DNA from: a virus
Lineage: Duplodnaviria > Caudoviricetes
Virus record (IMG/VR): IMGVR_UViG_3300021446_000106
Coordinates: 1-61,187 of that record
Direction: 5' to 3' (one strand)
DNA: 61,187 nucleotides
Position 1 is the stretch's first letter; each line of letters starts with the position of its first letter. The position numbers were made by a program, and so were the translations under genes. Positions 5,001 to 56,123 of this stretch are shown piece by piece. Below the pieces are notes generated by a model, which was not told the DNA's origin, did not search any database, and was given only the letters and a program-made list of their open reading frames with translations.

Positions 5001-5224
5001 CCATCCGGGAAACATTCCTCGATAGTCCGGCCGTCCAAGTCAATAAAACCAACGACTTCGTCTTCGTAGGAGTCATGGGCGACAATACTGAGGATTCGTT
5101 CTTCGCCAAGTTCCGGGAAGCCTGCAGACCTATCATCCGTTTCGATGTCAAGGGTGCACACCCGAGGCTCCAACTGTGTAAACTGCTCGTATTCCTCATC
5201 TGAGACAATTGTAGGGTCAACCAT
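2021..5224 (-). CDS. polB: Family B DNA polymerase (exonuclease and polymerase domains) with intein
   Basis: ExoI DIETD, ExoII WNADDFD, ExoIII YNARD; motif A DLASLYP, motif B KTITN/SIYG, motif C YGDSDS, KKRY. Confidence 0.97.
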   Translation of the reverse strand: MVDPTIVSDEEYEQFTQLEPRVCTLDIETDDRSAGFPELGEERILSIVAHDSYEDEVVGFIDLDGRTIEECFPDGCPDGLDQVRCEPTERRMLIAFRSWFQGVDPDLVTGWNADDFDIPFIIERMTKLEGLDENALSPLGWAGHGRSVRIKGRTVYDLLKVYKANSFTELRSYSLDDVAQEVLGAEKIQFDGTFFDLYDENPARFLEYNARDVDLAVRINREADVIQFRDTLRREVGVDFEESYNANSFIEMLCRRKLAEKDVVPPTASYEGDEDYEGAHVFDAYEGVAENVVGIDLASLYPYTMAMLNASPETKITDGVDRAGEPVPAETQTAEAPNGAEFRLDKDGLFKELIDESLSLKKDYKEKRDAAESDEEYEKWAKKYLTAKTITNCFSPDTEVMTPAGVQNIRELSVGDPVYSVNPDTGAMEVKPVTDTHAYPDYDDGLVTIRNSGTDFKVTPNHRMLVSRQTGYVSEDGYSFVEAGDLLNSGGYEMPNKWGVPDGETPDSIDLRDFLSEDEYRTVGEKISEPRQKCGKIDPEIPAPQFIKLIGWYISEGSIYTSTKKEYETTTRGRATSINISQEKDPYRTQIEGLLDSLGLSYYKGDRSFQITGAGVLATVLERLCGSGSENMQIPDAIFNWSPDMKSLLFGVLMAGDGNHRGHRYTTKSEELRDDVMRLLVETGHTPRYNRDSSAWRVHWDVTRQFRAGRDTGTEQAENGVYCVTVADNHTLLAGRNGRFQPVGQSIYGTLGWEYFFLYDKDVAASVTTTGQSVIKRTAECVEAEGHDVLYGDSDSVYIKFNDSWPRGKCLDGARDLCDELNNVVYPELAEDMGVPAEDNLWDIEVEAYMERFFQAGKKKRYAYLTTWKDGRELDNPKISVTGFASRRSDSAALTKETEEAVLEAILHGEQGTVGTMVFEAAQEITSTDVDWDRIGIPGGLNQKIDPARAGEDGYYSFSEDGYPQDAHPRAVWNANKVLDAEIETSDKPKRVYLEPRTFSRVQRKIDVIAFNEASDLSEIEDDLQIDAARMTNVTLIRPLEEILHAIDIDPEAAVRGQQQTGLGAFE
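2990..4048 (-). mobile_element. LAGLIDADG intein (353 aa) in PolB motif B
   Basis: Begins CFSPDT, block B VTPNH, LAGLIDADG-like LIGWYISEG and LFGVLMAGDG, block F VYCVTVADNH, ends GQ before +1 Ser; removal restores KTITNSIYG. Confidence 0.95.
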
Positions 5225-6101: not shown

Positions 6102-6629
6102 TTATCGTTGGACATCGTGGATAGTGTTAATTCTGCTGCAGTTCTTTCTCAGTAATCGTACTAACTCATCCAACTGGAGCGGTTTGTACCCTATCAGCTC
6201 AACAGAGACATTAACGGTCTGTCGGTTCTGGTGAATAAAAGGATACGTGCCAATGTCGTTGTTGTGGATGTGTCCGTGAATCTGCCACCCAGAGAAGTCT
6301 GGTTGGGGGCGATGCGAACAGAGAAATTGATAGCGACCGTGCCGAAGTGTCAGACTATCGACAACAGGCACAACGGGGTTCTCCGAGAACGCGTCATGGT
6401 TGCCGGACACGACGACAATCTGCCCATTGAGTTGGTCCAGAACCCTATCAGCGATAGCTGAATCGATGGCCACGTCGCCCAGATGGTACACGACATCGTT
6501 ATCGTCCACGACCGCGTTCCAGCGGGATACTAACTGCTCGTCCATGGCTTCGCACGACTCGAATGGCCGGTCACAGTAATCGATGATGTTAGCATGGCCG
6601 TGGTGGGTGTCCGATATGACGTACTCCAT
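6102..6629 (-). CDS. Calcineurin-like metallophosphoesterase
   Basis: SDTH, HLGD, GNHD, SH, HGHIH motifs. Confidence 0.92.
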   Translation of the reverse strand: MEYVISDTHHGHANIIDYCDRPFESCEAMDEQLVSRWNAVVDDNDVVYHLGDVAIDSAIADRVLDQLNGQIVVVSGNHDAFSENPVVPVVDSLTLRHGRYQFLCSHRPQPDFSGWQIHGHIHNNDIGTYPFIHQNRQTVNVSVELIGYKPLQLDELVRLLRKNCSRINTIHDVQR

Positions 6630-8749: not shown

Positions 8750-9271
8750 TTATAGAGACTCCGCAATCGTTTCGACAACATCATCGCGGATACTATCCGT
8801 TAGTTCGTTCGTGACAATATGGTCCATGCAGGCGGCAAGGCTCGTGCTCAGGTAGTCGGTATCGGTAATCGCCCACGGAGAGAGCACCATGTCTTCGGTA
8901 TGCCAGACCACCACTCTCTTATCCAGCGTGGCCGCCGCGTACTCGTGTTCCCGCGGGGTCCCATACATCGGGACGTTATCGCGTAATCCAATGAGGACCA
9001 CATCCGCCGAGTCAATCATGCTCTTATCTGCCTGTACAATGTCCGTTGGCGACAGCACCTCAATATCCTCAGGATAGTCTGAGGGCACTTCGTCGGGCTG
9101 GAGCCATTCTACTTCGGTGCTTGGTGTGTCGTACTTGTCCAGCGGATTTAGGAAGTCAAGTTGGTCAGAATACGCTTCTACTACGTCGTCGCGCCAGTCG
9201 TGGCCACCATTATCAGCGTGCTGGACCGGACCGGCAAGATAGATAGTCGGTGTGTAGTCAGATTCAGTCAT
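8750..9271 (-). CDS. Nucleoside 2-deoxyribosyltransferase-like protein
   Basis: IYLAGP, WR, D..MIDSADVV, GTPRE..YA motifs. Confidence 0.8.
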   Translation of the reverse strand: MTESDYTPTIYLAGPVQHADNGGHDWRDDVVEAYSDQLDFLNPLDKYDTPSTEVEWLQPDEVPSDYPEDIEVLSPTDIVQADKSMIDSADVVLIGLRDNVPMYGTPREHEYAAATLDKRVVVWHTEDMVLSPWAITDTDYLSTSLAACMDHIVTNELTDSIRDDVVETIAESL

Positions 9272-9900: not shown

Positions 9901-10517
9901 TGTTCTCTTCTTCTATCATTCTGTGACAGTTGGCGCATAGGATATCACATTTCTGTAGTTCGGTAGCTATTTTGTGCCACATCCGGTGGTTATGTTGGCT
10001 TATATCAAAGGTCTTGTTTGTGGGCTCCCTGTGGTGGAAGTCCATCACCCTTGCTGGGTAGTTTTCCCCACACCTTTGACATCCTATATGTTCTTGTATC
10101 TGTCGTAGGCGCTTCTTTTTCTTTAACGAGGATATTCCATCTGGCGTGTGATTCTCTTTTACTCCTGCTTTCTTTTTTCCCTTTGTTGAAGCTACCAAAT
10201 CTAAGCTGGACAAGGCTATGGGAGAATTTTGAGGCCTCGTCAAATTGTTCTTGTGTTATAGCACCCTCTTGGTTTTCTGACACGCGTTGTAGTTCGCTAA
10301 TTATTTCTTCATCGGAAAACTCCTGTTCCGACCCCTGTGGTTTCGTGTCAATGTTAGCCGCTTCTTTGGCTTCATTCCATCCACCAAATGCTGTCCGTAG
10401 CGGTCTAAAGCTTATATTGGCAAGCTCTTTAAAGTCGGAAAGGGATACATTACCAGATGTCTCCCTATCAACCCGCTTCAGCTCATCAATAATCTCATCT
10501 TCTGGAATCGGCTTCAC
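9893..10517 (-). pseudogene. HNH endonuclease with two N-terminal helical repeats; frameshifted near 10173-10178 (real lesion or sequencing error)
   Basis: EII.EL.RV...FG.(W/F)N repeats in one frame and CQRC...DFHH...LCANCH in the +1 frame, joined at GGGAAAAAAG; AT-richer than the flanks. Confidence 0.8.
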
Positions 10518-10524
10518 CAGCTTC

Positions 10525-11697
10525 TTACCCGAATTGAATTGTCTCCGACCAGTGTAGCGCGTGTTCATCGTTCGCCCCATGCACAGCACCTACAGGTCGG
10601 CCAGAGATAGCGTGTGATTCCTCAAACTCTGTTTGGGGGACAAGACTACCACCCATCGTGACAGGCCGCCCATTGATTGATTCTATTTTATATTGGTGAT
10701 AATGGCCCCGAAATGCTACATCGAATTCGTGGTCAATAAGCCAACTTCTCCAGCGAGATTTAGCGGCGTTCGTTCCAATGTGTTCCAGCGAGCTATCGTG
10801 CCCATGCCGGAGGTGCGCGTTCCAGTCACGAATTTGGAAGTCAACATAGTAGCTCCTATCGCTCCGGATAAAGGTCACGTTGTCCATGTTAGACTCCCGA
10901 ACCACGGCATCGAGCATCGAGTACAGGATGTTATCTGCATTGGATGGGTTCCCGCGGCCACCAATTCTGCCGTGGTTCCCCGGCTGACAGACCACCTTTA
11001 CCGACGGGAATTCATCAGAGAGCCGTCGAATGTTCTGGATGTAGACACTTGCCGCCATGTCGATTTGTTCCTCCAGCGTAGCGTCGATTTCGTGTGCTTG
11101 CCCATCATAGATACTTTCGTTCGTGACCATATCTCCACCGAGTAGGAGATTTGCTGTGTCGAACTGGACACCACCGGCCCGTCGCATATCTGCTATCGCA
11201 AGGGCTCGGTAGAATGTTTCGTTGACACGGCTCTCTGCTATATCACTCGTGAACACCTCGTCGCCATGCTGGTTCGTGACATGCTCACCGAAGTGGTCGT
11301 CCGTCCGGTGGATTATCAGGTCTGTCCCACCGCTTCGTTGGGTTGGACCCCCGGACTCAACCGCCGGTTCCGTGTTGGACAGCGCTTCGTGGAGCCCATA
11401 TTCCATTTCCGCAAGAACGCGCTTCGCCTCGCGGGTAATCGACTGTTTCTCGCCCGCCGTTGTTCGGGGGCTTGGCACTGCCGCCGATTCGAGCTCCGGG
11501 GCACCATCCGCCGCGTCGTAGTAGTAGCCGTCATTGTCTTGTTCTATCTGTACTCCTTTTCGACGCAGATTCTCTACGATGTCATACACATAGCTCACAC
11601 TAATGTCCATCACATCGGCCAGCTCCTGCGTCGTCTCCGGCATGAGCTGGTAGGCAGTGAATTCGTTCTCACTAAAGTTATCAGGTATGTCAGGCAT
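10525..11697 (-). CDS. HTH plus metallophosphoesterase (PolD small subunit/Mre11-like fold)
   Basis: N-terminal TTQELADVMDIS HTH; DDHFG, GGD, GNHG, HGH, GHYH. Confidence 0.85.
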   Translation of the reverse strand: MPDIPDNFSENEFTAYQLMPETTQELADVMDISVSYVYDIVENLRRKGVQIEQDNDGYYYDAADGAPELESAAVPSPRTTAGEKQSITREAKRVLAEMEYGLHEALSNTEPAVESGGPTQRSGGTDLIIHRTDDHFGEHVTNQHGDEVFTSDIAESRVNETFYRALAIADMRRAGGVQFDTANLLLGGDMVTNESIYDGQAHEIDATLEEQIDMAASVYIQNIRRLSDEFPSVKVVCQPGNHGRIGGRGNPSNADNILYSMLDAVVRESNMDNVTFIRSDRSYYVDFQIRDWNAHLRHGHDSSLEHIGTNAAKSRWRSWLIDHEFDVAFRGHYHQYKIESINGRPVTMGGSLVPQTEFEESHAISGRPVGAVHGANDEHALHWSETIQFG

Positions 11698-17871: not shown

Positions 17872-18374
17872 GCCGCGTTCCTATCATTGTAGATTATCGT
17901 GAACAAAAGCCCTACAAATTTCCGGGCGAAGAATCTCGAACAGAAAAACTGAACGTTGGCGATTACACACTTGAAGGGTTCCGCGACAAATTTGCGGTCG
18001 AACGTAAGACCCTGAACGACTTGGCAACATCCGTCGGCACCGACCGGCTCCGATTTGAGAATGAAATACGCCGCGCCAACGGGTACGCCAATCGCAACGA
18101 GGACGATAACCCCATCCCCGGAACGGCCCCAAACTCTGCTTTGGATGAATTTGTCGTGGTTATCGAGGCCGACAAACGCGACTTGTATAAATATGCAGGG
18201 CGGAGTTCTTGTCCTAATTATTACAGTAATATCCACCCGAACTCGCTTATCGGAACGCTTGAATCGTGGCCCGACAAGTACCAGAATCTCGATTTTATCT
18301 TCGCTGGAAGTCGAAACGGTGGCTGTCAGGAGACACTTCGCAAATTAGACCAATGGTATCTCAAACATTCCTAA
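17868..18374 (+). CDS. ERCC4/XPF-family nuclease (possible resolvase)
   Basis: IIVDYREQ, VGDY, VERKTLNDL. Confidence 0.9.
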   Translation: MSRVPIIVDYREQKPYKFPGEESRTEKLNVGDYTLEGFRDKFAVERKTLNDLATSVGTDRLRFENEIRRANGYANRNEDDNPIPGTAPNSALDEFVVVIEADKRDLYKYAGRSSCPNYYSNIHPNSLIGTLESWPDKYQNLDFIFAGSRNGGCQETLRKLDQWYLKHS

Positions 18375-18592
18375 CGACAGTGTTCCGGCGGCGGTGGTGA
18401 CGTTAGTATGGCCGAGATATAGATAAGTAGCACTCCGATAAGCATGGCTCCGACCGCGGCGCCGGGCTTGCCCCACGTATGATACATCCAGAGCAATGCC
18501 CGATACAGGAGATACCAGAGGCCGGAACAGAATAGGACAATTCCGAGGAGCATTAGAACATCCGGGAACGAGACACCGCCTGATTCGCTCAT
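18371..18592 (-). CDS. Small membrane protein
   Basis: Two hydrophobic segments. Confidence 0.6.
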   Translation of the reverse strand: MSESGGVSFPDVLMLLGIVLFCSGLWYLLYRALLWMYHTWGKPGAAVGAMLIGVLLIYISAILTSPPPPEHCR

Positions 18593-18852
18593 AGCACGGC
18601 CCCCGCCAACTCGGTCACAGCCTTGCCAATGAGTATTAGCAGGCCGAACACGATTGGGATGACCACGATAATAAGTAATGCAAACCATAGGAGAGCCGAA
18701 GCGGCATACCTGATAGTAATAACGCTATTGTGGCCGTCGTATGTCTCTTTCGGGGCGTACCCAAGCTCGGCAATCGGTAGATAACAGAGGAAATATAACG
18801 CCATCACGGTTGCCACGGTACCGAGTCCACGGGCGAAATAGATTTCTTCCAT
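18589..18852 (-). CDS. Small membrane protein
   Basis: Two hydrophobic segments. Confidence 0.6.
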   Translation of the reverse strand: MEEIYFARGLGTVATVMALYFLCYLPIAELGYAPKETYDGHNSVITIRYAASALLWFALLIIVVIPIVFGLLILIGKAVTELAGAVL

Positions 18853-19024
18853 TATTCTATGACCACCGTACCGACGTTCGTGCACCTGAACCGCTGGCGC
18901 TCACCGCAGTCGCCACACCGCATCCACGCTATCGCGCCCTCGGATGCACCGGGCTTTGTGTGTTCCCGCTCTCTACCACACGACTTACATTCCCACGTTT
19001 GTGGGTCTTTCTGGTCGAACATTG

Positions 19025-19882
19025 TCACTCGAACAGGTCACGCACGTACTCGGCAACGAAGGGGTCGGTACTGGTGTCTTCGCCGACCGTGGTACTGTAC
19101 GGCCAGTCGTCGTGGCTCTCCGACAGATGGCGGTACTGTTTCACGGCGGTCAGTCGGGGGTCCCGCTCGTGAACCAGTTCGTAGGCGTAGTCTCGGGCGG
19201 CGTCAATGCCCTCCGATTCCAGAACCCGCAGGAAGTGCATCACGACCGAGAGGTGGTCCGGGGCCATCGGTTCGGGAAGTCGCCACTCGTACCTGTTGTC
19301 TCCACTCTGGAATGTCACCTCGTTGACGACACGCTGGCTACTGAAACTGCGGTCGCCACAAAGACCGGCATCGCTAACGCCACCATGTCGCCACGGGTCA
19401 AGTGAGCTTTCGCTCAGGGACGTGCAGACGAACAGCCGCATCCACGGTTCCTGACATAGTTCGTAAAGTGCCTCTGCCTTCTCGCGGGGCACCTCTGACA
19501 AGTGCATATGCAGGCCGAATACCGTCTCGCCATACCCCGTGGTTGCGAACGGGTAGCCCATGTCTGTTGCCCGGTCGATGGTTGCCGCGTACCACCGTTC
19601 GGGGTCGCGCGAATGTAGGTCCAGCGGTGCCGACGTGATTTCCGCGCCGACATGGTCGCTGGTCATTTCGCCGGTCGGTACGTCTATATCGAGGTGCCAG
19701 TCGTTGGTGGTTCCGACGTTGTCCCGGAGCCCGCGTGAACGGTCGCCATTACCCGGTATCATTTCCCCATCACGATGGGGAGAGACAGGGTACTCGAACT
19801 CAATACCGATGGTGTCGATGTCGGCTTCGTCGGAAGTAGTCGTGCGCTCGATGCTGGCGGGAATGGAATCTGTTGCTGACAT
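19025..19882 (-). CDS. COOH-NH2 ligase (amidoligase) paralog 1
   Basis: IGIEFEY, AEITS, GLHMHLS, YEWRLPEP. Confidence 0.85.
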   Translation of the reverse strand: MSATDSIPASIERTTTSDEADIDTIGIEFEYPVSPHRDGEMIPGNGDRSRGLRDNVGTTNDWHLDIDVPTGEMTSDHVGAEITSAPLDLHSRDPERWYAATIDRATDMGYPFATTGYGETVFGLHMHLSEVPREKAEALYELCQEPWMRLFVCTSLSESSLDPWRHGGVSDAGLCGDRSFSSQRVVNEVTFQSGDNRYEWRLPEPMAPDHLSVVMHFLRVLESEGIDAARDYAYELVHERDPRLTAVKQYRHLSESHDDWPYSTTVGEDTSTDPFVAEYVRDLFE

Positions 19883-19888
19883 GATGTA

Positions 19889-20155
19889 TCACTCAACTTC
19901 GAGGGTGCGGATTTCTGCGTGGATTCTGTCGGCGTCCGAAGCGGGGGCTTCAAGAAGCGCCCGTGCGTGGTTTAGCTCTCGCCACTCGTAATCATCGCTG
20001 GCTCCCGTCGGGATAGCGTGTCGTTCGGCTATCTCCTGTGCAACGAACAGCTCATCCGTAAGCGTTCGCATACCTGTATAGTCCGTGCAATGCGTCCCGT
20101 AGATTGTTTCCCACGGAGACGGGTCGGCTTCGACGTAGAACATATAGTCGGTCAT
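19889..20155 (-). CDS. Hypothetical protein
   Basis: Operon context. Confidence 0.6.
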   Translation of the reverse strand: MTDYMFYVEADPSPWETIYGTHCTDYTGMRTLTDELFVAQEIAERHAIPTGASDDYEWRELNHARALLEAPASDADRIHAEIRTLEVE

Positions 20156-21042
20156 CCGAACAACTCACCCAACCCCTCATCATCACCATCGTCGTCGGCA
20201 GGCTCCTCCTCAGTGTTATCTTCGTCGTCCCATTCAACATTGTTGAGGCCGGGATAGTCATCGAGGCCGACTGTCTCCGCAAACTGTTCACCGTAGCGCC
20301 GCAGATTTGCTTCGTCAAGTGACGGCGCGCTATTCACTTCGAGCACGTATGGGTTCCCATCTTCGCCCATTATCATATCGACGGCACCGAAGTCGAGGCC
20401 GAGTGCCCCAACCGCGTCAATAGCCAGTTGACTATCGGGCGGCTGTTCTCGCGGGTCCACGAATATCCAGCCGGTTTCGTGGTTCCGCAGGAAGGGGTGG
20501 TTGTCCTCGTCCGACCGGAGCCGCTTCTCGTGTATCTTGACGACCTCGCCGTCGATAACGTGCATTCGGTATTCGAGGTCCGTCGGAACGTATTCCACGA
20601 AGTAATCGTTCCCATCGGTCAGGTAGGCGTCACGCCATTGCAGGATGAGATTGATGTCCTGCCCGCGAGTATGCTGTTCCGCGCGACCGAGTGCCGGATA
20701 GCCGAACGTGTCACTAATCTCGTCTCGATTAGTTGTGTATTCCGGCACCGGAACCCCAGCATTATCGAGCCGGCGAAGTGTCTGGAGTTTGTCAGTATTC
20801 TGCCGAAGCGACTCCATCGAGTTCACGACTGTTTCGCGCGGCCGATACCCGACGCTGGTTCGACTGCCCCATCGAATGAGGTAGTCGTATCGGTTGTTGC
20901 AATCCCGCCCATGCGGTATCCCGAGGAAGTCGCCCAGCCGATTGCCGGTGACGTGCGACCGTCCGTGGTACAGCAGGAAGGCGGTCGTGGTGTTGTGCTG
21001 TCTATCTCGCTCGCCGGTAATGCGTTGGAGTTGCTCAGGCAT
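20152..21042 (-). CDS. ATP-grasp peptide ligase (RimK/YheCD-like)
   Basis: IRWG, DKLQT...GVPVP, EYRMHV, LGLDFGAVD, YVLEVNSAPSL. Confidence 0.9.
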   Translation of the reverse strand: MPEQLQRITGERDRQHNTTTAFLLYHGRSHVTGNRLGDFLGIPHGRDCNNRYDYLIRWGSRTSVGYRPRETVVNSMESLRQNTDKLQTLRRLDNAGVPVPEYTTNRDEISDTFGYPALGRAEQHTRGQDINLILQWRDAYLTDGNDYFVEYVPTDLEYRMHVIDGEVVKIHEKRLRSDEDNHPFLRNHETGWIFVDPREQPPDSQLAIDAVGALGLDFGAVDMIMGEDGNPYVLEVNSAPSLDEANLRRYGEQFAETVGLDDYPGLNNVEWDDEDNTEEEPADDDGDDEGLGELFG

Positions 21043-21346
21043 CGTGTTCTCCCATCATACGGTGTCCGAAATCGACCCACAACCGGCCATCTTTTCGGAG
21101 TGCTTTGTTTACGATTCGCTCGTGAAGCCGCGACTCGTCTCGACCAGCCACTTCCTCACCGGGGTCGTACTTGATTTTGATATGCGAAGCGTCAGTATTA
21201 TCACGCTTGGACACGTGGTCGCCTTTCTCGACTATCCAGCCACGGTGCCCACGATACTCGCACTTCATGTAGAGGCCTATATCCTCGAACGTGAACATCT
21301 GGTCGTCGTTCGCGCCCTTACTCGTCGCCGTTGTTGTCGTTCCCAT
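21035..21346 (-). CDS. Hypothetical protein
   Basis: Operon context. Confidence 0.55.
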   Translation of the reverse strand: MGTTTTATSKGANDDQMFTFEDIGLYMKCEYRGHRGWIVEKGDHVSKRDNTDASHIKIKYDPGEEVAGRDESRLHERIVNKALRKDGRLWVDFGHRMMGEHDA

Positions 21347-21462
21347 TGGTGATGTCCTCCAGTCGGGTTTTTATTTCACGCACGTCTTTGATTTCTTGTT
21401 CTATCATGATGGACGTACCAAGCCCCGCTTCGTCTCGCCCTTCTTGCAGGAGCCTGATAGCC

Positions 21463-21825
21463 TCAGACAGTTTCTCGTTCGTCATAGTGGTCCTGCATCC
21501 CGGATACGAAGTCGGCCAGCGCTTCGGTGCCAGCAATCTGTCGTCCGTGCATCATCACAAGATGAAGCCGGTCCGTCCACCACACTTCCCACGTGCGAAA
21601 GTCAATCCGCACTGGAACCGTGCGGGCATGGTCAGGAACCCGGTCGGGTGGGCGGAGTGGCGACAGTTCTCTCGACCGTCCGTCGGTAACAATTCCTTGC
21701 AGGATAATGTCGCCACATTTAGGACACTCATATTTGACAGATGTGCCCCGCCCGATACAGCGCACTTCTGACGGAATCTGTGACCCACAACAGAAGCACT
21801 CCTTGTTTGGCTCACGGTATATCAT
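21463..21825 (-). CDS. Zinc-ribbon protein
   Basis: CFCCG...CPKCG. Confidence 0.5.
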   Translation of the reverse strand: MIYREPNKECFCCGSQIPSEVRCIGRGTSVKYECPKCGDIILQGIVTDGRSRELSPLRPPDRVPDHARTVPVRIDFRTWEVWWTDRLHLVMMHGRQIAGTEALADFVSGMQDHYDERETV

Positions 21826-21967
21826 CTGTCATTATGGCGCATCCTGTCGAGGCAGTCACCACACGTTTTCCCATTGTAGGGCACGATATTCCCACACCGC
21901 TCGTAGTTGATGCAGGCGTTCTCGGGGTCCAGCACTTCTGTATCAATATCGTCATTAACGATGTGGG

Positions 21968-23191
21968 TCACTTGACTGCCCCCTCGACTAAGTTTGTATC
22001 CTGTTCGAGTATGTCGTACACCTCGTTTGCTATCTCGGCGGCCTCCCGCATATCCATGTCGCCATCGGTTGCGTCCATGACGGCTTCGCCAGCGGCCGAC
22101 GCGATTTCCTTCTGGATTTCATTAGCTTCGCTATCCTCCGCAAAGTCGGAGAGCGAGGTTTGGCCGGGCTTGATGGGGTTCTGTTCGGCCCATATTTCAA
22201 GCTGTTCGATGTCGTGGTCCGGCGTCTCATCGGTGTACCAGTAGTACATTCGCGGGTCGGCGTCCCGGTAGATGAACTCGGACTTATCTTCTTCGGTGTC
22301 GATGAGCTTGACAATACCGGGCGCAACCTTGACCGCGACAAGCCGGCCGGCGTTGGGGAGCAGATTTTCGTAGGCGATAGCGTACTTGTCCGTCTCGTGG
22401 TCGTCGGCAGAAGCGCCGCCCCCGTTCGGCCAGCTCGAATAGGTTTCCTGTGTCGTCCTTCGCGTGACCGTCCCGCTCCGAGTGTTCTTCGACCGACTCC
22501 GCGAATAGGTGTACTCTTTCGTCTCAACATCCGGCTGTCCTTCGGCTGGCGTTATGAGCATCCACTCGTTTTTCGACCGCTCGAAGCCAAGCTCATCCGG
22601 GTTCTCGAAGGACCGGCGACTGCACGTCATTGACACATCATCAGTCAGGTGATACTTCTTGGACACTCGAATGAGAATCCCATCGTCAGCGAACAGCAGG
22701 TAGTTCAGGTTGCCCGAGAACGAGTACGTACTTTGCCCGTGGTCAGCAACGCTCTCTGGGAGTTCGCTGACTTTGTGTGCAAGTATCTCGCTATCGACCT
22801 TCGTGTTGAAGTCGTGCTCAGCACCGATGAGGCCAGCGCGAATACTGCGGTGGTTCCGAACACTCCCATTGTGGACTACGTGGTCGAACTCACACTTATC
22901 ACAGTCCACATGAATCGGGTGGGCCGCCGCACGATTGACGCCGCCGCAGGTTCCGAAGCGCCCATGAATTACGAACCGCCATGTATCATTGAGGTGGCGG
23001 GACATGAACTCGTGAAGCGTCTGCCAATGCGGCGTCGTTGACTTGTATGTCTCGTACTCGAACCCATCGCTGTTGTGTTTGACAGCGAGTACACCAAGTC
23101 CGTCGCCCTGTTCCGCATGGAACTTGGCGGCTATCTGGTGCATGATGGACAGGTTACACGACTCGGGGTTACAGACTGCTATCTCGCACAT
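21968..23191 (-). CDS. Class-II (Ntn) glutamine amidotransferase with C-terminal extension
   Basis: Cys2, DGLG, HGRFGTCG, HP, HNG, DSE. Confidence 0.9.
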   Translation of the reverse strand: MCEIAVCNPESCNLSIMHQIAAKFHAEQGDGLGVLAVKHNSDGFEYETYKSTTPHWQTLHEFMSRHLNDTWRFVIHGRFGTCGGVNRAAAHPIHVDCDKCEFDHVVHNGSVRNHRSIRAGLIGAEHDFNTKVDSEILAHKVSELPESVADHGQSTYSFSGNLNYLLFADDGILIRVSKKYHLTDDVSMTCSRRSFENPDELGFERSKNEWMLITPAEGQPDVETKEYTYSRSRSKNTRSGTVTRRTTQETYSSWPNGGGASADDHETDKYAIAYENLLPNAGRLVAVKVAPGIVKLIDTEEDKSEFIYRDADPRMYYWYTDETPDHDIEQLEIWAEQNPIKPGQTSLSDFAEDSEANEIQKEIASAAGEAVMDATDGDMDMREAAEIANEVYDILEQDTNLVEGAVK

Positions 23192-23257
23192 GTTAATGGT
23201 TGGTTAACTGCATTTCGGTTTCCGCGCGAACGCCAGCCACGGTCTGTCGGTTGGTTG

Positions 23258-24310
23258 TCATTTCTTCTTCTTGACGAGCTTTTTGAGTTCCTCGGTCGCT
23301 TCTGTTTCGCGCGGGTTCTGTCCATCACGCCGGTAGGCAGAGCGCACATCGTCGGCTAACTCTGCGTCCGTGACCTGTTCGAGTGAGTCAGCGTACAGTA
23401 CATCGCTCGGGGTGAACTCCACGCCAGCTATCTCGCACGACGAGCCAGCGAACCGTGTGTCGTAGTCGAACACGTAGAATGGCGTATCACGAAGCTCGAC
23501 GGCGTAGATTTCAGGTGCATCCCACGTTGCCGAAACTTCATCGTAGAATGACTCGGGGTCGGACTCGAAGGGTTCTCGCGCGACAGTCGGCCGGTCATCG
23601 AGGTCCATGCCCACGGCTTCCGCGCGGCGAATTGCTGTTATTCTATCATCGACAGCGTCGAGCTTTTCCTGCGCGTACTGGATTGCCGTCTCTCTATCTT
23701 CGACAAAGAGCGCGAGGAACCGCATAATCATACCGACGTGTTCGGGGAGAACAGGCTCGGGAAGCCGCCACTCGTAGTGTCCACCACCACGCTCATTGAC
23801 GACGTGATAGTGCCCGGCCCCGAATTGCAAATCACAGTACCGACCACCACGGAACACCGGCCATTGCAGGCTTCCGTTGGAATTTCTCGCAATAGATGAG
23901 CAGAATAGCACTTGCGCCCACGGTTCACAGGAAATATCCGCAAGGTCCTGTGCCGTATCGCGCGAGATTTCGGAGATATGAATATGTAGACCAGCAGTAG
24001 AACCATCCGACATGAGGCCAGTCGGCTCGAACCTATCATTATACTCGGCCTCGATGAAGCTAATCACGTCGCCATACCACGACTCTGCATCCTCGATTGG
24101 AAGCACGTCCGACACCACTTCGAGGCCGACCGTCCCATCATAGACTGCACGACCGCCAATCGGTGACGGCCACGTGTCAATCGCATCGAGGAGCGGGTTC
24201 GACGGCGTGCCGCGACTGACGAGGTGTTCACCATCCGATATGGGGTACTCTACTTCGAGGCCGACACTCAAGTCGCTATCGCGTACGTCGAAGTCGATGT
24301 TACTTGGCAT
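23258..24310 (-). CDS. COOH-NH2 ligase (amidoligase) paralog 2
   Basis: VGLEVEY, DGTVGLEVVS, AGLHIHIS, YEWRLPEP. Confidence 0.87.
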   Translation of the reverse strand: MPSNIDFDVRDSDLSVGLEVEYPISDGEHLVSRGTPSNPLLDAIDTWPSPIGGRAVYDGTVGLEVVSDVLPIEDAESWYGDVISFIEAEYNDRFEPTGLMSDGSTAGLHIHISEISRDTAQDLADISCEPWAQVLFCSSIARNSNGSLQWPVFRGGRYCDLQFGAGHYHVVNERGGGHYEWRLPEPVLPEHVGMIMRFLALFVEDRETAIQYAQEKLDAVDDRITAIRRAEAVGMDLDDRPTVAREPFESDPESFYDEVSATWDAPEIYAVELRDTPFYVFDYDTRFAGSSCEIAGVEFTPSDVLYADSLEQVTDAELADDVRSAYRRDGQNPRETEATEELKKLVKKKK

Positions 24311-24944
24311 TGGTGGGTGTGAGAATTACCTTCTGGTAGTTGTCTGTCCGTCGGTCGGGGCCAAAGGGGCGATTCTTTCGGGCAACAAGACCGCGCTCGG
24401 TCAGGTGGTAGCCCCCCGACGCATGGATATACATGGACTCGCGCCCAAGTAACACATACGCTGGCTGGCCACCGAAGAACGCCTCTGCACCCTCGAATGT
24501 CGAAGGGACTTCACCGAATGTATGCCCGATTATTTCGCTATCCACGCCTGTCTGGAACGTGTGTCCCTCATCTTGGAGCGCCCGACGGCGGCGTTTGTGA
24601 TTGTATGCCATGCCATTGTGGATAACGTACTCCATGTCGCATTCATCACACTCGATTTCGAGCGGGTGTGTATTTGTCTCGGTCACATCGCCACAGGTTG
24701 CCAGCCGCCCGTGCATGACACATCGTATCGCGCCGTCCGAATTGGCCTCGATGAACTCCCGCATGGCGTCGAGGTCGGGGGCCACGGATTTGTACACGTC
24801 GTACTCGAACGTGGTCCGGTCGTCACTCTCGCTGACATATACGATGCCAGCACCGTCACCCATCCGTTCGTAGATGGACGTGATAATGTCGAGCTGTTCA
24901 CCTGTCTCTGCGTGTCGTGGGTCGATAATGCTAATTTCACACAT
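24300..24944 (-). CDS. Class-II (Ntn) glutamine amidotransferase
   Basis: Cys2, DGAG, HGRLATCG, HP, HNG, DSE. Confidence 0.9.
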   Translation of the reverse strand: MCEISIIDPRHAETGEQLDIITSIYERMGDGAGIVYVSESDDRTTFEYDVYKSVAPDLDAMREFIEANSDGAIRCVMHGRLATCGDVTETNTHPLEIECDECDMEYVIHNGMAYNHKRRRRALQDEGHTFQTGVDSEIIGHTFGEVPSTFEGAEAFFGGQPAYVLLGRESMYIHASGGYHLTERGLVARKNRPFGPDRRTDNYQKVILTPTNAK

Positions 24945-24945
24945 A

Positions 24946-26310
24946 TTATGCGATGATTACGTTGTCGAGTACCTGCTTGGCATCCCGGAGCGCCTCGGTA
25001 TTTTCTTGGAGCACACGAAGGTCGTATCGCCCCCGGCCTTCGTAGTTGACGATGAAGATGCCTTCCTCGGTGAAGAATCGCCGCGGGTTCTCGAACGCAT
25101 CTTCGAGCAGGGTTTGCTCTGCCTCGGTAACATCGCCCGACGCTGTTTCGGCTCGCGGATGGTCCTGTGCAGAGAGGCTCACCACATCGTTGCGGTTGAC
25201 CATAACGCGGTCAGTATCTGCTCGAATCCGGCTGGCATCGTTTTCATTGTCGATAGAATCGAAGGCCCCATCTGCCTCATCCGCGAGAACGGGGCCATTC
25301 GACCTGATACGATACTGGCCCGAGTCGGTGACGACAGCAACCTGTGGATTATCCTCGCGTAACCTGTCCGCGCAGGTGCCACAGAATAGCCCCGGTCGAT
25401 TAGCGAAGAACTCGTCGCCAGTTTCGTGTAGCGACACAATGTCGGCGTCGGGATGCTGTCGGACCCACACTACACCCTGCGTGCGATGATGGATTTTGTT
25501 GAACGTATCACCACACATCAGGCACGTTTCCTGTGGAATATTTGACGGGTCGATAGTATCCCACGCATCCCGTGGCGCGACGACATCTGCCATGAACGGT
25601 CGGATGTTCCCATCGAACTCGGCCAGCGTTTTCGCGCGGCTGGCATCGGTGCCGTCCTGATACCAGTTGAGAAACTCACTCACGTTTTCGACTTCACGCG
25701 CGATACCAATATCGTCATCATTTGCTGACAGCATGAGCGCCAGCTCGACGTTTTCTTCGGGAAGGTCGTCCATGTCGGTGTCGTGTTCCTCGAACCACCC
25801 GAGGTTCGACTGAATGTCGTATCCCATTACATCCATTGACTCCGCGAAGTCGCGGCAGTTATCGAGGTACTCCTCAGACCTGTCCGTGAACCGCGCTTCG
25901 TAGGCCGCCACATATGCGCGTGCAATGTGGGGCCACTCCATTGTTTCGTTATTGAAGGCGAGGGTCCAGTCATCTTGCCGGTTATACTCGTCGGCGATAC
26001 GCGCGCTGGTATCTTCGAGTATTGCGTGGCGTAGCTCAGAGAACCCATCGTAGTCCCTGCATTCGATACCTCGTTCGTGCGCGACTCTGATGAACCACGC
26101 GGTTGGGGTAATGTCTGTCATTGAATCGGGCGATGTATGTAGTGCCGGTGACGGCGACTTCCCAATGGCGACGGAAAGCGAATCGGTAACGGGTTCGCTT
26201 GTCCCAACGGCTTGGGAAATTTCTTGCGACTGCCCGCTAATTTGTTCGTTAACGCGGTCGATAACCTCTTGCGAAATATGGAGTGTCGTATCGGAATCAC
26301 GGTTGGGCAT
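24946..26310 (-). CDS. Hypothetical protein (454 aa) with two CxxC pairs
   Basis: Long acidic ORF coupled to the GATase gene. Confidence 0.75.
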   Translation of the reverse strand: MPNRDSDTTLHISQEVIDRVNEQISGQSQEISQAVGTSEPVTDSLSVAIGKSPSPALHTSPDSMTDITPTAWFIRVAHERGIECRDYDGFSELRHAILEDTSARIADEYNRQDDWTLAFNNETMEWPHIARAYVAAYEARFTDRSEEYLDNCRDFAESMDVMGYDIQSNLGWFEEHDTDMDDLPEENVELALMLSANDDDIGIAREVENVSEFLNWYQDGTDASRAKTLAEFDGNIRPFMADVVAPRDAWDTIDPSNIPQETCLMCGDTFNKIHHRTQGVVWVRQHPDADIVSLHETGDEFFANRPGLFCGTCADRLREDNPQVAVVTDSGQYRIRSNGPVLADEADGAFDSIDNENDASRIRADTDRVMVNRNDVVSLSAQDHPRAETASGDVTEAEQTLLEDAFENPRRFFTEEGIFIVNYEGRGRYDLRVLQENTEALRDAKQVLDNVIIA

Positions 26311-26743
26311 TCTTATCTTTAACGATTATTTCGCCGACTGTCGGCCGGGGAATGAACTTGAACTGCGACTGCTCCAACTTTACCGCATACTCGTAGCCCT
26401 TCGACTCAAGCATCTCGGTGAGTTGCTGGACATTCCGTCGCCGGACCGCATACATGGAAGTTCGTGGCTCGTAGAATGGGTTCGAGCGGTCTACAAACTC
26501 GTGCAGTAGGTGGCTGGTTGGGCCATTACACGCCTTTTCAATTTCGTCGGGAAATCCGCTCTGCGTCACGTCATGCCACGAGTACACGGCCACGAAGTTG
26601 AAGTCGTCCTCGTGTATTTGTTCTGTGCCGCCGCCGTCGCCACCGATTCGCGCCAGTTGATGTACGTCTGCCCCCGGTGGCGCGGGGTCCGATGACCAGC
26701 CAGCATTTCGTTCAGTATAGCTCGCCATTGTCGATGTAGACAT
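26297..26743 (-). CDS. Hypothetical protein
   Basis: Operon context. Confidence 0.6.
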   Translation of the reverse strand: MSTSTMASYTERNAGWSSDPAPPGADVHQLARIGGDGGGTEQIHEDDFNFVAVYSWHDVTQSGFPDEIEKACNGPTSHLLHEFVDRSNPFYEPRTSMYAVRRRNVQQLTEMLESKGYEYAVKLEQSQFKFIPRPTVGEIIVKDKNAQP

Positions 26744-26880
26744 CCATTGCTGGATACCCGCGCGCGACGAGCCATTCGCGGAGCTGTTCGGTCACTTCGT
26801 CGGCGTGTTCCTCGGAGAGTGTCTCTTTTGACATTCCCTCGACCACGAAGGCCACCCGTTTGGTGTCGGGCGGGTCCGGG

Positions 26881-27267
26881 TCATTCGATGACGGAGTCGT
26901 TGAATGGTGTTTCTCCGTAGGAATTGACCGGCACGTCATCCCTGTCATCGGTCCGTGGCGGTTCGTCGCGTATCTCGACTTGGTAGGTGGTTTCTGTGAC
27001 ATCAGCGTGGTGTGATACCGCATTGCGTATTGTTCGCGCCTGTTCATGTATGTCATAGCGGTGCATACGGAACCCACGTGGATAGCCCCAGTAAATGACG
27101 ACATGATTAATCGGTTGGTGTTCGGCAAGCACAGCCTCCGCCCCATCGCGCCCGCCGATAATGTACCGAGCCGAATCGCCATTCCCATAGCACCACCGCA
27201 TATTACTGGCCGTCGTTGGACCAGTCTCCGTGAGGAACCCCTGCACCAAATCTTCTTGGGTTGCCAT
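26881..27267 (-). CDS. Hypothetical protein
   Basis: Operon context. Confidence 0.65.
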   Translation of the reverse strand: MATQEDLVQGFLTETGPTTASNMRWCYGNGDSARYIIGGRDGAEAVLAEHQPINHVVIYWGYPRGFRMHRYDIHEQARTIRNAVSHHADVTETTYQVEIRDEPPRTDDRDDVPVNSYGETPFNDSVIE

Positions 27268-27437
27268 GTTAACCAGAGGTTAATGGGTTGGCTCGAAGCC
27301 GTACCAGTTGTTTTCCTTGAGCGGGAAGATGTGGTTGGTTACTAAACTGTCGTCGCCGTCGGTGTCGGTGTGTCGTATCATCGTTGGGTTCGTGCGAGAT
27401 TTGTAATTTGGGTAACGGTTCGAGGGTTCGTTTTCTG

Positions 27438-27488
27438 TCCACCTATTTCCTTACCTCTCATCCTAAAGAGAGGTAAGGAATAGGTGGA
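27438..27488. repeat. 21-bp inverted repeat (one bulge) with loop ATCCTAAA
   Basis: TCCACCTATTTCCTTACCTCTC / GAGAGGTAAGGAATAGGTGGA. Confidence 0.95.
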
Positions 27489-27489
27489 G

Positions 27490-27861
27490 TTACTGGTTGG
27501 CCTCATCGTAGACGGTACCAGCCACCATTAGCGCCTCGGCTTCACGCGCCGCCGAACTGATTGTCGTGAAGTCAGTCTCTATCTCCGCGACAAGATTGTC
27601 GGTGCCGTTCGGGTTATGTTCCAACAGAAGAATCTGGAACACGGGGCGTCGCCGTTCGTGCGGCCCCGGCATATCCTCGACGGTGAGTTGGTGCGCTGTT
27701 TCAGGATGTTCCCACGCTTGGTGCTGGAACATCGAGTATTCCGGCTCGATTTCGTACCACGGGTCGGTCATGCTTTCGTCTGTTTCGATTGTGCTCATAT
27801 CAACACCTCGTTGGAACGTACCAGAATGCCCCGGCCATACCAGCGAGTGCGAGTATGGCAC
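27490..27861 (-). CDS. Hypothetical protein (true start probably MSTIET, ~27798)
   Basis: Acidic; GAGGTG precedes the internal ATG. Confidence 0.6.
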   Translation of the reverse strand: MPYSHSLVWPGHSGTFQRGVDMSTIETDESMTDPWYEIEPEYSMFQHQAWEHPETAHQLTVEDMPGPHERRRPVFQILLLEHNPNGTDNLVAEIETDFTTISSAAREAEALMVAGTVYDEANQ

Positions 27862-27944
27862 CGGCCCAGTATATTACTGGGTGAACTGCGCGGAGGAGCA
27901 TGAGGGGGATGGAAAGGCCAAGCAACGCGAGAACTGCGTCGCAT

Positions 27945-28925
27945 TTATTCATCGTCATCCTCCGTCTCCGGCACTTCGACATCGCCATGCAGTCGAGCGT
28001 AGTAGTTCTCGGCCGCTTGTTGCTGTTTCTCGCGCTGTTTCTCCCACGTTGGCTGGTATCCGTATCGGGCTTTGTAATCACTCGGTACCATTACAGGTAC
28101 TCCAGAATGAGGTCCATTGTCTCGTTGCGCTCTGCCTTTGCCGCCGGAAGGTCGCCGTGTTTTCTCCTGTATCGCCCGCGCCCGCTGAATTGCGGTCACA
28201 TCTTCCGGCCTCGTCTCTAATATATTCATCGCCCGAATCTGGCCAGCCGCTTTGCCATCGCGTAGCGTTCTTGTCAGTACGCTTAGAAGAATATGGAACG
28301 ACTCCGGGAGCATTGGCTCGGGTAATCGCCACTCGTAATGCCCCCGTTCGCGCCGTTCCGCCACCAGTTTATCACGCCCGAAACCACACGGGTCTTGGTC
28401 TTTACACGGGTTCTTCACATCGGTATCGTTCCCGCGCACGACCGGATACTTCGGCAGTAGGGTTCCATCACTATCGTAGGCGGCGATTGACGTACACGCT
28501 AATGCCTTCATCCACGGTTCGCGCGAGACTTCGCGGATGAGGTTCGCGTCACGCTCCGATAGCTCCGATAGGTGGACGTGTAAGCCAGCCGTACCGCGAC
28601 CGTGGAACCCGACCGGCTCGATACGACTGTGTTCCTGTTCGATAGTTTGATAGAGTTTGTCGTACCACTCGGATAACATCGCCGCGTGCATGGTACTGTG
28701 GGTTCGGGCCTCCCATCCGTGCGTCGATGGGCTGGCACTAATCCACTCGTGCGTGATTTCGGTGCCATGTATGTCCGGCTTCGCTGATTCCGCAGGAACC
28801 GGGCGGCCTCGTGCCATCATGTGATACCGCTCGTCGTCACAGACGGGGATTTCCAGCTCGGCACCGAACCGCAACGATTTGGTTAGCGATGCCTCCGGGT
28901 GCGAATTGGTTACGTCAAGTATCAT
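27945..28925 (-). CDS. COOH-NH2 ligase (amidoligase) paralog 3
   Basis: FGAELEI, AGLHVHLS, EPW, YEWRLPEP. Confidence 0.82.
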   Translation of the reverse strand: MILDVTNSHPEASLTKSLRFGAELEIPVCDDERYHMMARGRPVPAESAKPDIHGTEITHEWISASPSTHGWEARTHSTMHAAMLSEWYDKLYQTIEQEHSRIEPVGFHGRGTAGLHVHLSELSERDANLIREVSREPWMKALACTSIAAYDSDGTLLPKYPVVRGNDTDVKNPCKDQDPCGFGRDKLVAERRERGHYEWRLPEPMLPESFHILLSVLTRTLRDGKAAGQIRAMNILETRPEDVTAIQRARAIQEKTRRPSGGKGRAQRDNGPHSGVPVMVPSDYKARYGYQPTWEKQREKQQQAAENYYARLHGDVEVPETEDDDE

Positions 28926-29286
28926 CTTGCGCCTCCATGAACGCCTCGCTTGCCGCTTTGCTGTCGCCGAAGTGCCGCATGAGCGCCGTTCCTGCACAGT
29001 CCGAATCATGTGCCACGGCTATCTTGTGCGCTTCGCGGGCGTACTTCGTTTGCGCGGCGAAGGTGCAGTCATCATCGAGACACTTTACGACGTGCGTGAA
29101 TTGCTCGTCTTTTTCCGACACGAGCCGCTCGACTTCCCCGCTGGTAATTGGCACCGGAGCCGGGTCGTCAGGTTTCGTGCCCACGAAAATGAGGTGCTCC
29201 TCAACATCTGTTACGACGCCCTTTTTAAGGTGGCCATGCGAACGGAACATCAGCCAGTCCCCCTCGGAAATGTCTGCATCCGTCAT
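28915..29286 (-). CDS. Hypothetical protein
   Basis: Operon context. Confidence 0.6.
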   Translation of the reverse strand: MTDADISEGDWLMFRSHGHLKKGVVTDVEEHLIFVGTKPDDPAPVPITSGEVERLVSEKDEQFTHVVKCLDDDCTFAAQTKYAREAHKIAVAHDSDCAGTALMRHFGDSKAASEAFMEAQDDT

Positions 29287-56121: not shown

Positions 56122-56123
56122 CT

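Follow-up and report, generated by a model that had tools for sequence, protein, structure and literature searches.

A predicted amide-ligase gene cluster in a variable genome region of a Hafunaviridae-like virus of haloarchaea

Why would a virus of haloarchaea, whose hosts have no peptidoglycan, carry a set of amide-forming enzymes resembling one that has been proposed to act on the cell wall in bacteriophages? This question is raised by a gene cluster in the IMG/VR record IMGVR_UViG_3300021446_000106, a linear sequence of 61,187 nt (CheckV completeness, 82%), which was analysed at its full length and is called the window here. The cluster encodes three proteins, designated ligA, ligB and ligC, which are predicted from a structural model to be carboxylate-amine ligases with the glutamine synthetase (GS) fold, together with two class-II glutamine amidotransferases (GATases), GAT214 and GAT407, and one ATP-grasp ligase. 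All six genes named in the original prediction are present, tightly packed on one strand (minus). Our analysis indicates that the cluster is a strongly divergent variant of a known, uncharacterised viral module, plus a newly delimited ligase family. We read it as an accessory operon in a variable region of a Hafunaviridae-like haloarchaeal virus, encoding an ATP-dependent amide-forming pathway of several steps with a free peptide product, and the probability of this reading as a whole is roughly 0.4. The assignment of the proteins to their enzyme classes is very probably correct.

Enzymes of the cluster

The three ligases are 27-36% identical to one another, and their three-way alignment has 49 invariant columns. 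They had been recognised as paralogs of the COOH-NH2 ligase type from the motifs G-E-x-E, GLHxH and YEWRLPEP, and all of these motifs are invariant in the alignment. Curated profiles did not detect them. None of the three matched any Pfam model even at E≤10, including PF14395 (COOH-NH2_lig, the phiEco32-like type 2), and a six-frame search of the whole record with PF12224 (Amidoligase_2; gathering threshold, 22 bits) gave nothing at E≤10. There was no PHROG match and no meaningful NCBIfam match for the ligases, a profile of their family matched no PDB sequence at E≤10, and a set of 50,697 phage records searched by tblastn with ligB gave no match. The confirmation by hidden Markov models (HMMs) that had been proposed was therefore obtained for the GATases (GATase_6/7) and the ATP-grasp protein (Pfam RimK), but not for the ligases (0/3 in Pfam). 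Relatives of ligB numbered 94 in a collection of 5.8 billion proteins; they were all metagenomic, none had a Pfam domain, and they were named 'hypothetical' at most. The longest contigs recorded for family members measure 67 kb (P0027), 57 kb (P0091), 43 kb (P0030), 41 kb (P0074) and 40 kb (P0023).

An AlphaFold2 model of ligB was built from 39 relatives, and ligA and ligC were placed on it by alignment. The model had a predicted local distance difference test score (pLDDT) of 91.4 and a predicted template modelling score (pTM) of 0.79. When it was compared with 48,161 PDB representatives, all 19 chains at Z≥8 were GS, GCL, YbdK/1tt4, PafA, Dop or lengsin. The best matches were Dop (Z 13.8; 4.0 A over 218 residues), 1tt4 (Z 13.5) and GS (Z 13.4), PafA scored Z 12.1, and the first unrelated fold appeared at Z 5.5. 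Foldseek also placed 1tt4, YbdK, Dop and PafA at the top (E ~1e-5) and matched GmaS and GS as well. Among the 50 matches listed from BFVD, 21 were phage proteins named amidoligase, and the 'COOH.NH2 ligase-type 2' of Salinivibrio phage CW02 was among the matches listed. Seven residues, E19, E21, E64, H109, H111, E180 and R182, are invariant in 39/39 ligase sequences, and they are presumably metal and phosphate ligands. Residues 240-335 of ligB form an extra alpha/beta domain, for which no convincing structural match was found.

Profile comparison pointed in the same direction as the fold. A search of 1.84 billion representatives with the family profile found 106 proteins (clusters) at E≤1e-3, and the family is sharply bounded, since the E-values jump from 1.7e-15 to 3.4e-6, where four weak outliers follow. 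One of these outliers, P0184, was matched by the family profile at E 5.4e-6 and is itself matched by Pfam Amidoligase_2 at 9.2e-12. In hhalign, the family and P0184 aligned over 187 columns (96.7%, E 4.2e-10), with GxExE, VGxExVS, GxHxH and YExR in register. Fold and profile-profile comparison thus agree, and the structural check that had been named beforehand for the ligases came out in favour of the ligase fold. On these grounds ligA, ligB and ligC are modelled as GS-fold carboxylate-amine ligases, and their family appears to be a sister of Amidoligase_2, related to it at the profile level and outside the Pfam threshold.

The family is also divided. Among 173 members of at least 240 aa, 139 were nearest to ligB, 27 to ligA and 7 to ligC, counts that are skewed to ligB because ligB was the first query. 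In a FastTree phylogeny of 97 rows (midpoint root, Shimodaira-Hasegawa-like support; fragments shorter than 240 aa and the four distant outliers were left out), ligA fell in a clade of 28 rows (support 100), ligC in one of 14 rows (100) and ligB in one of 25 rows (95). Since the window ligases lie in separate supported clades, they do not stem from a recent duplication, and each paralog probably performs a step of its own. As judged from the sequences, the family, seen in metagenomes only, would be a closed set of 106 clusters with three old subfamilies.

Two further observations were made on ligB. A Lys-rich C-terminal tail (...LKKxVKKKK; 23258-23300) was found in 78 of 92 close relatives and in 17 of 46 wider long-form representatives, and such a tail is unusual for proteins of halophiles. 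The best viral structural match to the ligB model was A0A2L1J0D3, a protein of 453 aa from Mycobacterium phage Tesla that bears the name 'glutamine amidotransferase domain protein' and may be a GATase-ligase fusion. The related mycobacteriophage Marvin was searched for such a fusion, and this candidate was rejected because neither the profiles of the GATs and the ligases nor P0184 gave a match.

GAT214 and GAT407 both begin with MCEI, so that a Cys directly follows Met1. GAT214 matched Pfam GATase_6 at 44.4 bits (2.2e-11) and GATase_7 at 31.6 bits (1.9e-7), and GAT407 matched the same families at 35.7 bits (1e-8) and 25.9 bits; the cut-offs are 27 and 25 bits, respectively. Their description as Cys2 class-II GATases with a CDxC insert between HP and HNG applies to both proteins. 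The insert is lineage-specific: in a family alignment (A3), it was present in the close relatives of the window proteins and in GAT407, and missing in 4/4 more distant members. On the other hand, Cys2, Arg80, Asn110-Gly111 and Asp135 were invariant in 11/11 sequences of this alignment. The A3 profile aligned with the glutaminase domain of E. coli GlmS (1xff, chain residues 69-131, 1.6e-10), and Arg80, Asn110-Gly111 and Asp135 presumably correspond to R73, N98-G99 and D123 of GlmS. By their conserved residues, both GATases look catalytically intact. The NAGGN (N-acetylglutaminylglutamine amide) amidotransferase model TIGR03104 was weakly matched by both (0.029 and 1.4e-4). A predicted complex of ligB and GAT214 scored 0.01, which counts neither for nor against an interaction.

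The ATP-grasp protein passed the Pfam cut-off for RimK (26.3 bits, 6.7e-6; cut-off, 21) and matched phrog_2599 at 2.4e-40 and the NCBIfam models rimK_fam (3.8e-11) and MptN (9.7e-12). Its scores were far below the NCBIfam cut-offs (rimK_fam, 42.9 versus 143.4 bits; PRK10446, 21.2 versus 331), and it is therefore RimK-like and not RimK. Of the earlier label 'RimK/YheCD-like', the RimK part stands, while no YheCD model was among the matches. The ExN motif for Mg binding is present, as LEVNSAP aligns with LEVNTAP of Ddl, and the nearest solved structures by sequence are those of RimK (5zct, 1.1e-3; 4iwx, 1.2e-3). Using tblastn, 320 phage records were matched, all below 60% identity and most commonly named after Pseudomonas, Escherichia and Vibrio, and several of them have an 'amidoligase' annotated beside the matching gene. 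No haloarchaeal virus appeared in the 30 matches listed or in the ten commonest of 29 names. The protein is 33% identical to gp12 of Salinivibrio phage CW02 (E 7.8e-25) and 29% identical to gp52 of Pseudomonas phage O4, which has the same kinds of parts in its module; the proposed link to the phiEco32-like phages is borne out by this homology.

Gene order, viral setting and recurrence

The virus itself was identified from its structural genes. Among the products of the record are an intein-containing DNA polymerase of family B, a terminase, a major head protein and a portal. Halorubrum virus HRTV-25 (Hafunaviridae) has a portal with 61.8% identity to this one, and 53 of the 54 phage records that matched the portal are haloarchaeal viruses. 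The gene order of HRTV-25 is kept over most of the record in local tblastn comparison, where 2.0-18.4 kb of the window corresponds to its replication block and 34.3-55.6 kb to its packaging, head and tail genes. The archaeal-virus origin proposed earlier is confirmed by the portal identity together with this gene order. In the same comparison, the 16 kb from 18.4 to 34.3 kb had no HRTV-25 counterpart, and the cluster therefore sits in a variable region. The replication genes are on the same strand (minus) and downstream of it, so that early or middle expression is expected. Near-identical fragments of the record were found in four DNA runs of one halite metagenome study, as contigs of at most 1.2 kb at ≥99% identity, none of which joins across the cluster. 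A megablast search with the 10-kb cluster gave no match. The ORFs (open reading frames) of the cluster and its borders are as follows, in the order of transcription, where the two overlapping candidates count as one or two small ORFs.

27945-29009, minus strand: ligC, predicted GS-fold carboxylate-amine ligase paralog; longest ORF 354 aa; family profile 5.8e-67
27490-27861, minus strand: orf123, acidic small protein, isoelectric point (pI) 4.4; no Pfam family
26712-27188 (158 aa) and 26881-27267 (128 aa), minus strand: two overlapping candidate ORFs; no Pfam family for either
26297-26743, minus strand: orf148, overlapping the start of unk454 by 14 nt; no Pfam family
24946-26310, minus strand: unk454, conserved acidic protein with CxxC...HH...CxxC; core from Met64 (26121)
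24300-24944, minus strand: GAT214, stand-alone class-II (N-terminal nucleophile, Ntn; Cys after Met1) glutamine amidotransferase, 214 aa
23258-24310, minus strand: ligB, predicted GS-fold ligase (residues 1-240), 350 aa; extra alpha/beta C-terminal domain and Lys-rich tail
21968-23191, minus strand: GAT407, class-II GATase (about the first 200 aa), basic Ser/Arg-rich linker and C-terminal half without family
21463-21825, minus strand: orf120, small, two CxxC pairs, zinc-ribbon-like; zinc-finger matches sub-threshold only
21035-21346, minus strand: orf103, overlapping the start of the ATP-grasp gene by 8 nt
20152-21042, minus strand: RimK-like ATP-grasp ligase, 296 aa; homologue of the ATP-grasp protein in the phage amidoligase module
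19889-20155, minus strand: orf88, acidic small protein ending ...LEVE, overlapping the stop of the ATP-grasp gene by 4 nt; no Pfam or PHROG family
19025-19882, minus strand: ligA, 285 aa, predicted short-form GS-fold ligase without the C-terminal domain; family profile 5.8e-69
18852-19028, minus strand: 58-aa zinc-ribbon protein (Znr58), CxxC...CxxC, ending ...VVIE, overlapping the stop of ligA by 4 nt; zinc-ribbon matches sub-threshold
18589-18885 (98 aa) and 18371-18688 (105 aa), minus strand: two small predicted membrane proteins, two hydrophobic segments each

From orf148 to the 58-aa zinc-ribbon ORF, the intergenic gaps range from -14 to +142 nt, and start and stop overlap by 4-14 nt at six junctions, among them unk454/GAT214/ligB, orf103/ATP-grasp/orf88 and ligA/Znr58. 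The start of ligC is likely Met29 at 28925, which is also the end of the interval first proposed for the system, giving 326 aa, where it overlaps the stop of the upstream ORF by 11 nt; the basic N-terminal 28 aa belong to the longest ORF only, and that ORF overlaps the upstream gene. The enzymes of the cluster are acidic (pI 4.3-4.9), and the proteome has about 20% Asp+Glu. For unk454, no Pfam, PHROG or NCBIfam family was found, ESM Atlas gave no match above chance level, and the AlphaFold2 model was unusable (pLDDT 33.5); it has three homologues with 56-96% identity, one of which begins at Met64. The ORFs scanned in 18.4-34.3 kb gave no family match beyond the six enzymes and orf422, whose match is a weak one to an unnamed PHROG.

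The two small membrane proteins do follow the ligase genes as had been described, but they lie at 18371-18885, outside the 19025-28925 interval given for the system. Since they close the gene string, they bear on the possibility that the virus alters the host envelope for superinfection exclusion, through glutamylation or amidation of the S-layer glycoprotein or of an acidic polymer on the surface, which would parallel in archaea the role in the cell wall proposed for phiEco32. Some haloarchaea have poly-gamma-glutamate or glutaminyl-glycan wall polymers. A superinfection role has also been suggested for phiEco32 in the text available of PMC10580990. Conversely, no hydrophobic segment above threshold was detected in the six enzymes (Kyte-Doolittle, 19-aa window, as used for the membrane proteins), the ATP- and glutamine-dependent chemistry is cytoplasmic, and the homologous ATP-grasp protein with similar parts occurs in viruses of hosts with unrelated envelopes. 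We regard an envelope target as very improbable.

The recurrence of the genes was examined in seven loci obtained from one scan of Joint Genome Institute (JGI) metagenome contigs. A class-II GAT stands beside the ligase in 6/7 loci, directly adjoining it in L002, L003, L005 and L006 and separated by one small ORF in L004 and L007. The partners of the ligase in L002-L007 are long GATs of 363-526 aa. In L008 (1.6 kb), the ligase is truncated by the contig end, and no GAT was found in the 1.2 kb downstream. Because L002, L003 and L006 are near-identical, the loci represent four independent lineages. The ATP-grasp gene is present in one locus, L005, where ligase, GAT and ATP-grasp follow one another with a spacing of 0-1 nt before the contig ends; L003, L004, L006 and L007 lack it in at least 2 kb of flank. 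No second ligase, unk454 or other window gene was found in the seven loci, 0/10 neighbour ORFs of the related loci had a Pfam family, and the 869-aa protein of L007 had no phage match. This pattern indicates that the conserved core is one ligase and one long class-II GAT. The co-occurrence that had been proposed as a check is thus found for the ligase/GAT pair and not for the full set of three ligases, two GATases and one ATP-grasp enzyme, which is an expansion of the core seen so far here only.

Two coincidences hint at further linkage. The homologues of unk454 and GAT214 (P0195 and P0190) have an equal longest-contig figure of 2,933 nt and may share one contig, and the same is hinted for the homologues of ligB and GAT214 (P0002 and P0191), both with 9,671 nt. 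Three scans of IMG/VR, based on profiles of the ligB family and of the ligA clade and on the ATP-grasp protein, gave no confirmed relative, where the window's own record may have been excluded, and a scan of genome contigs found none.

Most members of the GAT family are of the long type (363-526 aa) with a basic linker rich in Ser, Arg and Gly, as in L002:2075-3166, L004:1474-2745, L005:2061-3641 and L007:4541-5830. In 4/4 distant loci, the long GATs also carry C-terminal Cys pairs of a zinc-ribbon-like kind. GAT407 has the basic linker and not the Cys pairs, and the neighbouring unk454 has CxxC...HH...CxxC.

Several observations were made elsewhere in the record. The family-B DNA polymerase (2021-5224, minus strand; 1,067 aa) has Hint, intein-splicing and LAGLIDADG matches at residues ~388-733, and its intein falls between the exonuclease and polymerase domains. 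The replication block includes genes for a calcineurin-like metallophosphoesterase (6102-6629) and for a nucleoside 2-deoxyribosyltransferase-like protein (8750-9271), both on the minus strand. Metallophosphoesterases are listed together with amidoligase and GATase genes for OM43 phages and a Poseidoniales virus in the text available of PMC11706807 and PMC10580990. The ORF at 10005-10589 (minus strand), which overlaps the exonuclease gene region, contains the 'homing endonuclease associated repeat' (HNH_repeat, 1.5e-17) in two units. Three tandem ORFs of ~156-162 aa at 55648-57079 (plus strand) have sub-threshold matches to the C-terminal domain of baseplate Gp10, and their sequences suggest a small paralogous array of fibre or baseplate tip proteins.

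Proposed pathway and its possible targets

In the pathway we propose, the ATP-grasp enzyme and the three GS-fold ligases would activate carboxylates as acyl-phosphates and join them to amines, each ligase doing a separate step, and the two Cys1 Ntn GATases would hydrolyse a glutamine-type amide. The core would consist of one long-form ligase and one long class-II GATase, to which the ATP-grasp enzyme, the extra ligases and the short GATase have been added. A pairwise coupling of ligase and GATase is somewhat probable, and we prefer an arrangement in which each pair works as a split glutamine-dependent amidotransferase, where the ligase would activate a carboxylate and the GATase would feed ammonia to it. 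Asparagine synthetase and the NAGGN amidotransferase (AsnO) have both activities in one chain and are a precedent for the feeding of ammonia. Alternatively, the GATase may strip a gamma-glutamyl group, as EgtC or PuuD does. The C26 hydrolase of the phage module and the gamma-glutamyl cyclotransferase of CW02 point to gamma-glutamyl chemistry. In our reading, the product would be a small Glu/Gln-rich peptide or peptide amide, acting as a free metabolite in host takeover and not by modification of the cell wall. The chemistry, the pairing of ligase and GATase, the timing and the target of this pathway are what we infer, and a free small-molecule glutamyl or glutaminyl peptide (or its amide) as the product is a tentative proposal.

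Several points weigh against the proposed pathway. The ligases match no curated HMM, so that their activity is deduced from fold and motifs only, and their best structural match, Dop, is a deamidase and no ligase. The ATP-grasp gene is present in just one of the seven related loci, and the full set is found in this record alone among the loci fetched. The data do not discriminate between a free metabolite and a macromolecular target; unk454, orf148, orf123 and orf103, all without family, could define the target, and the basic linkers of the GATs and the Lys-rich tails of ligB and its relatives fit a nucleic acid or an acidic protein as the substrate better than a small molecule. Since the record is 82% complete, partner genes may be missing. 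In the literature searched, there were no biochemical data for this or any phage amidoligase module.

A protein target is the next to be weighed. The ATP-grasp enzyme may attach glutamates to a protein of the host or the virus, at its C-terminal carboxylate or at one of a side chain, and the GS-fold ligases and GATases may extend, amidate (Glu to Gln) or remove the added residues, as PafA and Dop do with Pup. RimK, to which the nearest solved relatives of the ATP-grasp enzyme by sequence belong, glutamylates ribosomal protein S6, and the top structural matches to the ligase include Dop (Z 13.8) and PafA (Z 12.1). However, the small-molecule enzymes YbdK, GS and GmaS score equally with these two. 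Translational coupling links small acidic ORFs to the enzyme genes, and two of the small proteins end in Glu (orf88, ...LEVE; the zinc ribbon, ...VVIE), although a C-terminal Glu is expected by chance at about 20% Asp+Glu. No Pup-like (GG[EQ]) or LysW-like C-terminus was found in or near the cluster. Among 1,164 stop-to-stop frames of at least 30 aa, none ends in GG[EQ], and six have G[EQ] at their end, every one of them outside 18.3-34 kb. Modification of host proteins has been proposed for phage ATP-grasp ligases by the Aravind group, according to the text available of PMC4431377. Taken together, we consider protein tagging unlikely, and still the most plausible of the macromolecular targets.

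A nucleic acid would account for other features. Amino-acid-type groups may be attached to, or amidated on, a modified base of the viral DNA or RNA and shield it from host nucleases. The module lies in or beside the replication block both in bacteriophages and here, basic linkers and tails are carried by enzymes of an acidic proteome, and a target common to bacterial and archaeal viruses would account for the spread across the two domains. Lee et al. (PMC8989533, as far as its text was available) found amidoligase and glutamine-amidotransferase genes occurring together with genes of thymidine hypermodification (5-HMUDK and aGPT-Pplase2) in viral metagenome contigs. Such partners were looked for in the record. 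PF00303 (thymidylate synthase), whose control matched in 10/14 genomes, gave no match in the record, so that no thymidylate-synthase or dUMP-hydroxymethylase homologue was found, and PF18723 (HMUDK_hel, 5-HMUDK kinase) gave none at E≤0.01; as the record is 82% complete, these absences are no proof. PF12851 (Tet_JBP) did not match the record either, and its control matched no genome. The ORFs scanned showed no DNA-modification family; one set of scanned ORFs outside the cluster gave only the metallophosphoesterase, the nucleoside deoxyribosyltransferase-like protein and the homing-endonuclease parts. Hypermodification of nucleic acid is therefore improbable in our estimate. The same low estimate is given to a broader form of the idea, in which the module decorates the viral genome, or a universal component of translation, with glutamyl- or glutaminyl-type groups as a target common to viruses of both domains, and does not act on a host wall. 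If true, a pathway for amino-acid-type DNA hypermodification would be described in an archaeal virus for the first time, and a module that occurs in hundreds of phages would gain its first function.

Comparison with known systems

The ligases share their catalytic fold with PafA/Dop, YbdK/GCS2, GS and GmaS over ~210-220 residues (Z 12-13.8), but the identity of ligB to these proteins is 10-16%. With Pfam Amidoligase_2 (PF12224), they have in common the superfamily and the order of the motifs, GxExE, GxE, GxHxH and YExR, whereas the model of that family matches none of the three, and the long-form ligase here has an additional C-terminal domain. Current HMM libraries miss the new family with its three subfamilies and 106 clusters. 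As for RimK and the related alpha-L-glutamate ligases MptN, CofF and LysX, no cellular enzyme comes nearly as close to the ATP-grasp protein as the phage family does.

In cells, carboxylate-amine ligases are paired with GATase-type enzymes in EgtA/EgtC, PuuA/PuuD, the GmaS pathway and Ngg/AsnO (NAGGN), where the GATase-type partner either provides ammonia or takes off a gamma-glutamyl group. The similarity of the cluster to these pairs is at the level of domains only, and those pairs are non-viral. The minimal unit of the cluster, one ligase and one long class-II GAT, is a simple two-protein system that is testable in vitro.

Among archaeal viruses, a counterpart is already in print. The Poseidoniales virus 'Vyasavirus brisbanense' has amidoligase and GATase genes, which were read as auxiliary (PMC11706807, in the text available). 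The claim that no characterised archaeal example is known therefore holds for characterisation and not for presence. Both are archaeal tailed viruses with an amidoligase and a glutamine amidotransferase, but the host of Vyasavirus brisbanense is a marine group II archaeon and that of our virus a haloarchaeon, and the available text of the source makes no mention of an ATP-grasp gene or of three ligases. Our literature search found no report of such a module in a halovirus, and no experimental function for any phage amidoligase module.

For bacteriophages, a role in the cell wall or in superinfection has been suggested for the phiEco32 module (PMC10580990, in the text available), as the original prediction had stated. 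As relayed in the available text of PMC10580990 and PMC11706807, Iyer et al. 2009 and Mageeney et al. 2012 suggested modification of the cell wall or exclusion of superinfection, as well as secondary metabolites. The phage module has been annotated since 2009 and is widespread, as the 320 phage records with the ATP-grasp gene alone indicate. The presence of a recognisable version in an archaeal virus whose host has no peptidoglycan argues against a general validity of the often repeated cell-wall idea, and a bacterial cell wall is probably not the target here. The occurrence in both domains narrows the targets to those common to both, or to a free metabolite.

The cluster differs from the phage module of the phiEco32/Zobellviridae type in several respects. 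Its ligases have no direct sequence similarity to those of O4 and CW02 and match them at the level of the fold only; there are three ligases here versus two; and the host is archaeal. In O4 gp52-58, Pfam recognises Amidoligase_2 in gp53, COOH-NH2_lig type 2 in gp55 (1.1e-9), GATase_6 in gp56, a 400-aa class-II GATase (9.1e-17), and Peptidase_C26/class-I GATase in gp58 (9.7e-17). The second GATase here is of class II (214 aa), unlike the class-I/Peptidase_C26 type of O4 gp58, and no member of the Peptidase_C26 family was found among the cluster ORFs scanned. The CW02 module (gp2-16) also contains a gamma-glutamyl cyclotransferase, which was not found here.

The likenesses are, on the other hand, extensive. 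Their ATP-grasp proteins belong together in phrog_2599 (29-33% identity, E 1e-22 to 1e-25). Both contain at least two GS-fold ligases and a ~400-aa class-II GATase whose C-terminal half lacks a family, and in both the genes are co-oriented, packed and placed beside replication genes. The ATP-grasp gene also stands next to a GS-fold ligase gene here, since only the small orf88 separates it from ligA downstream. GAT407 matched O4 gp56 and CW02 gp3 at E 0.002 each, and the A3 profile matched them at 1e-3 to 2e-3. From these comparisons, homology to the phage module appears to be clear for the ATP-grasp protein and weaker for the long GAT.

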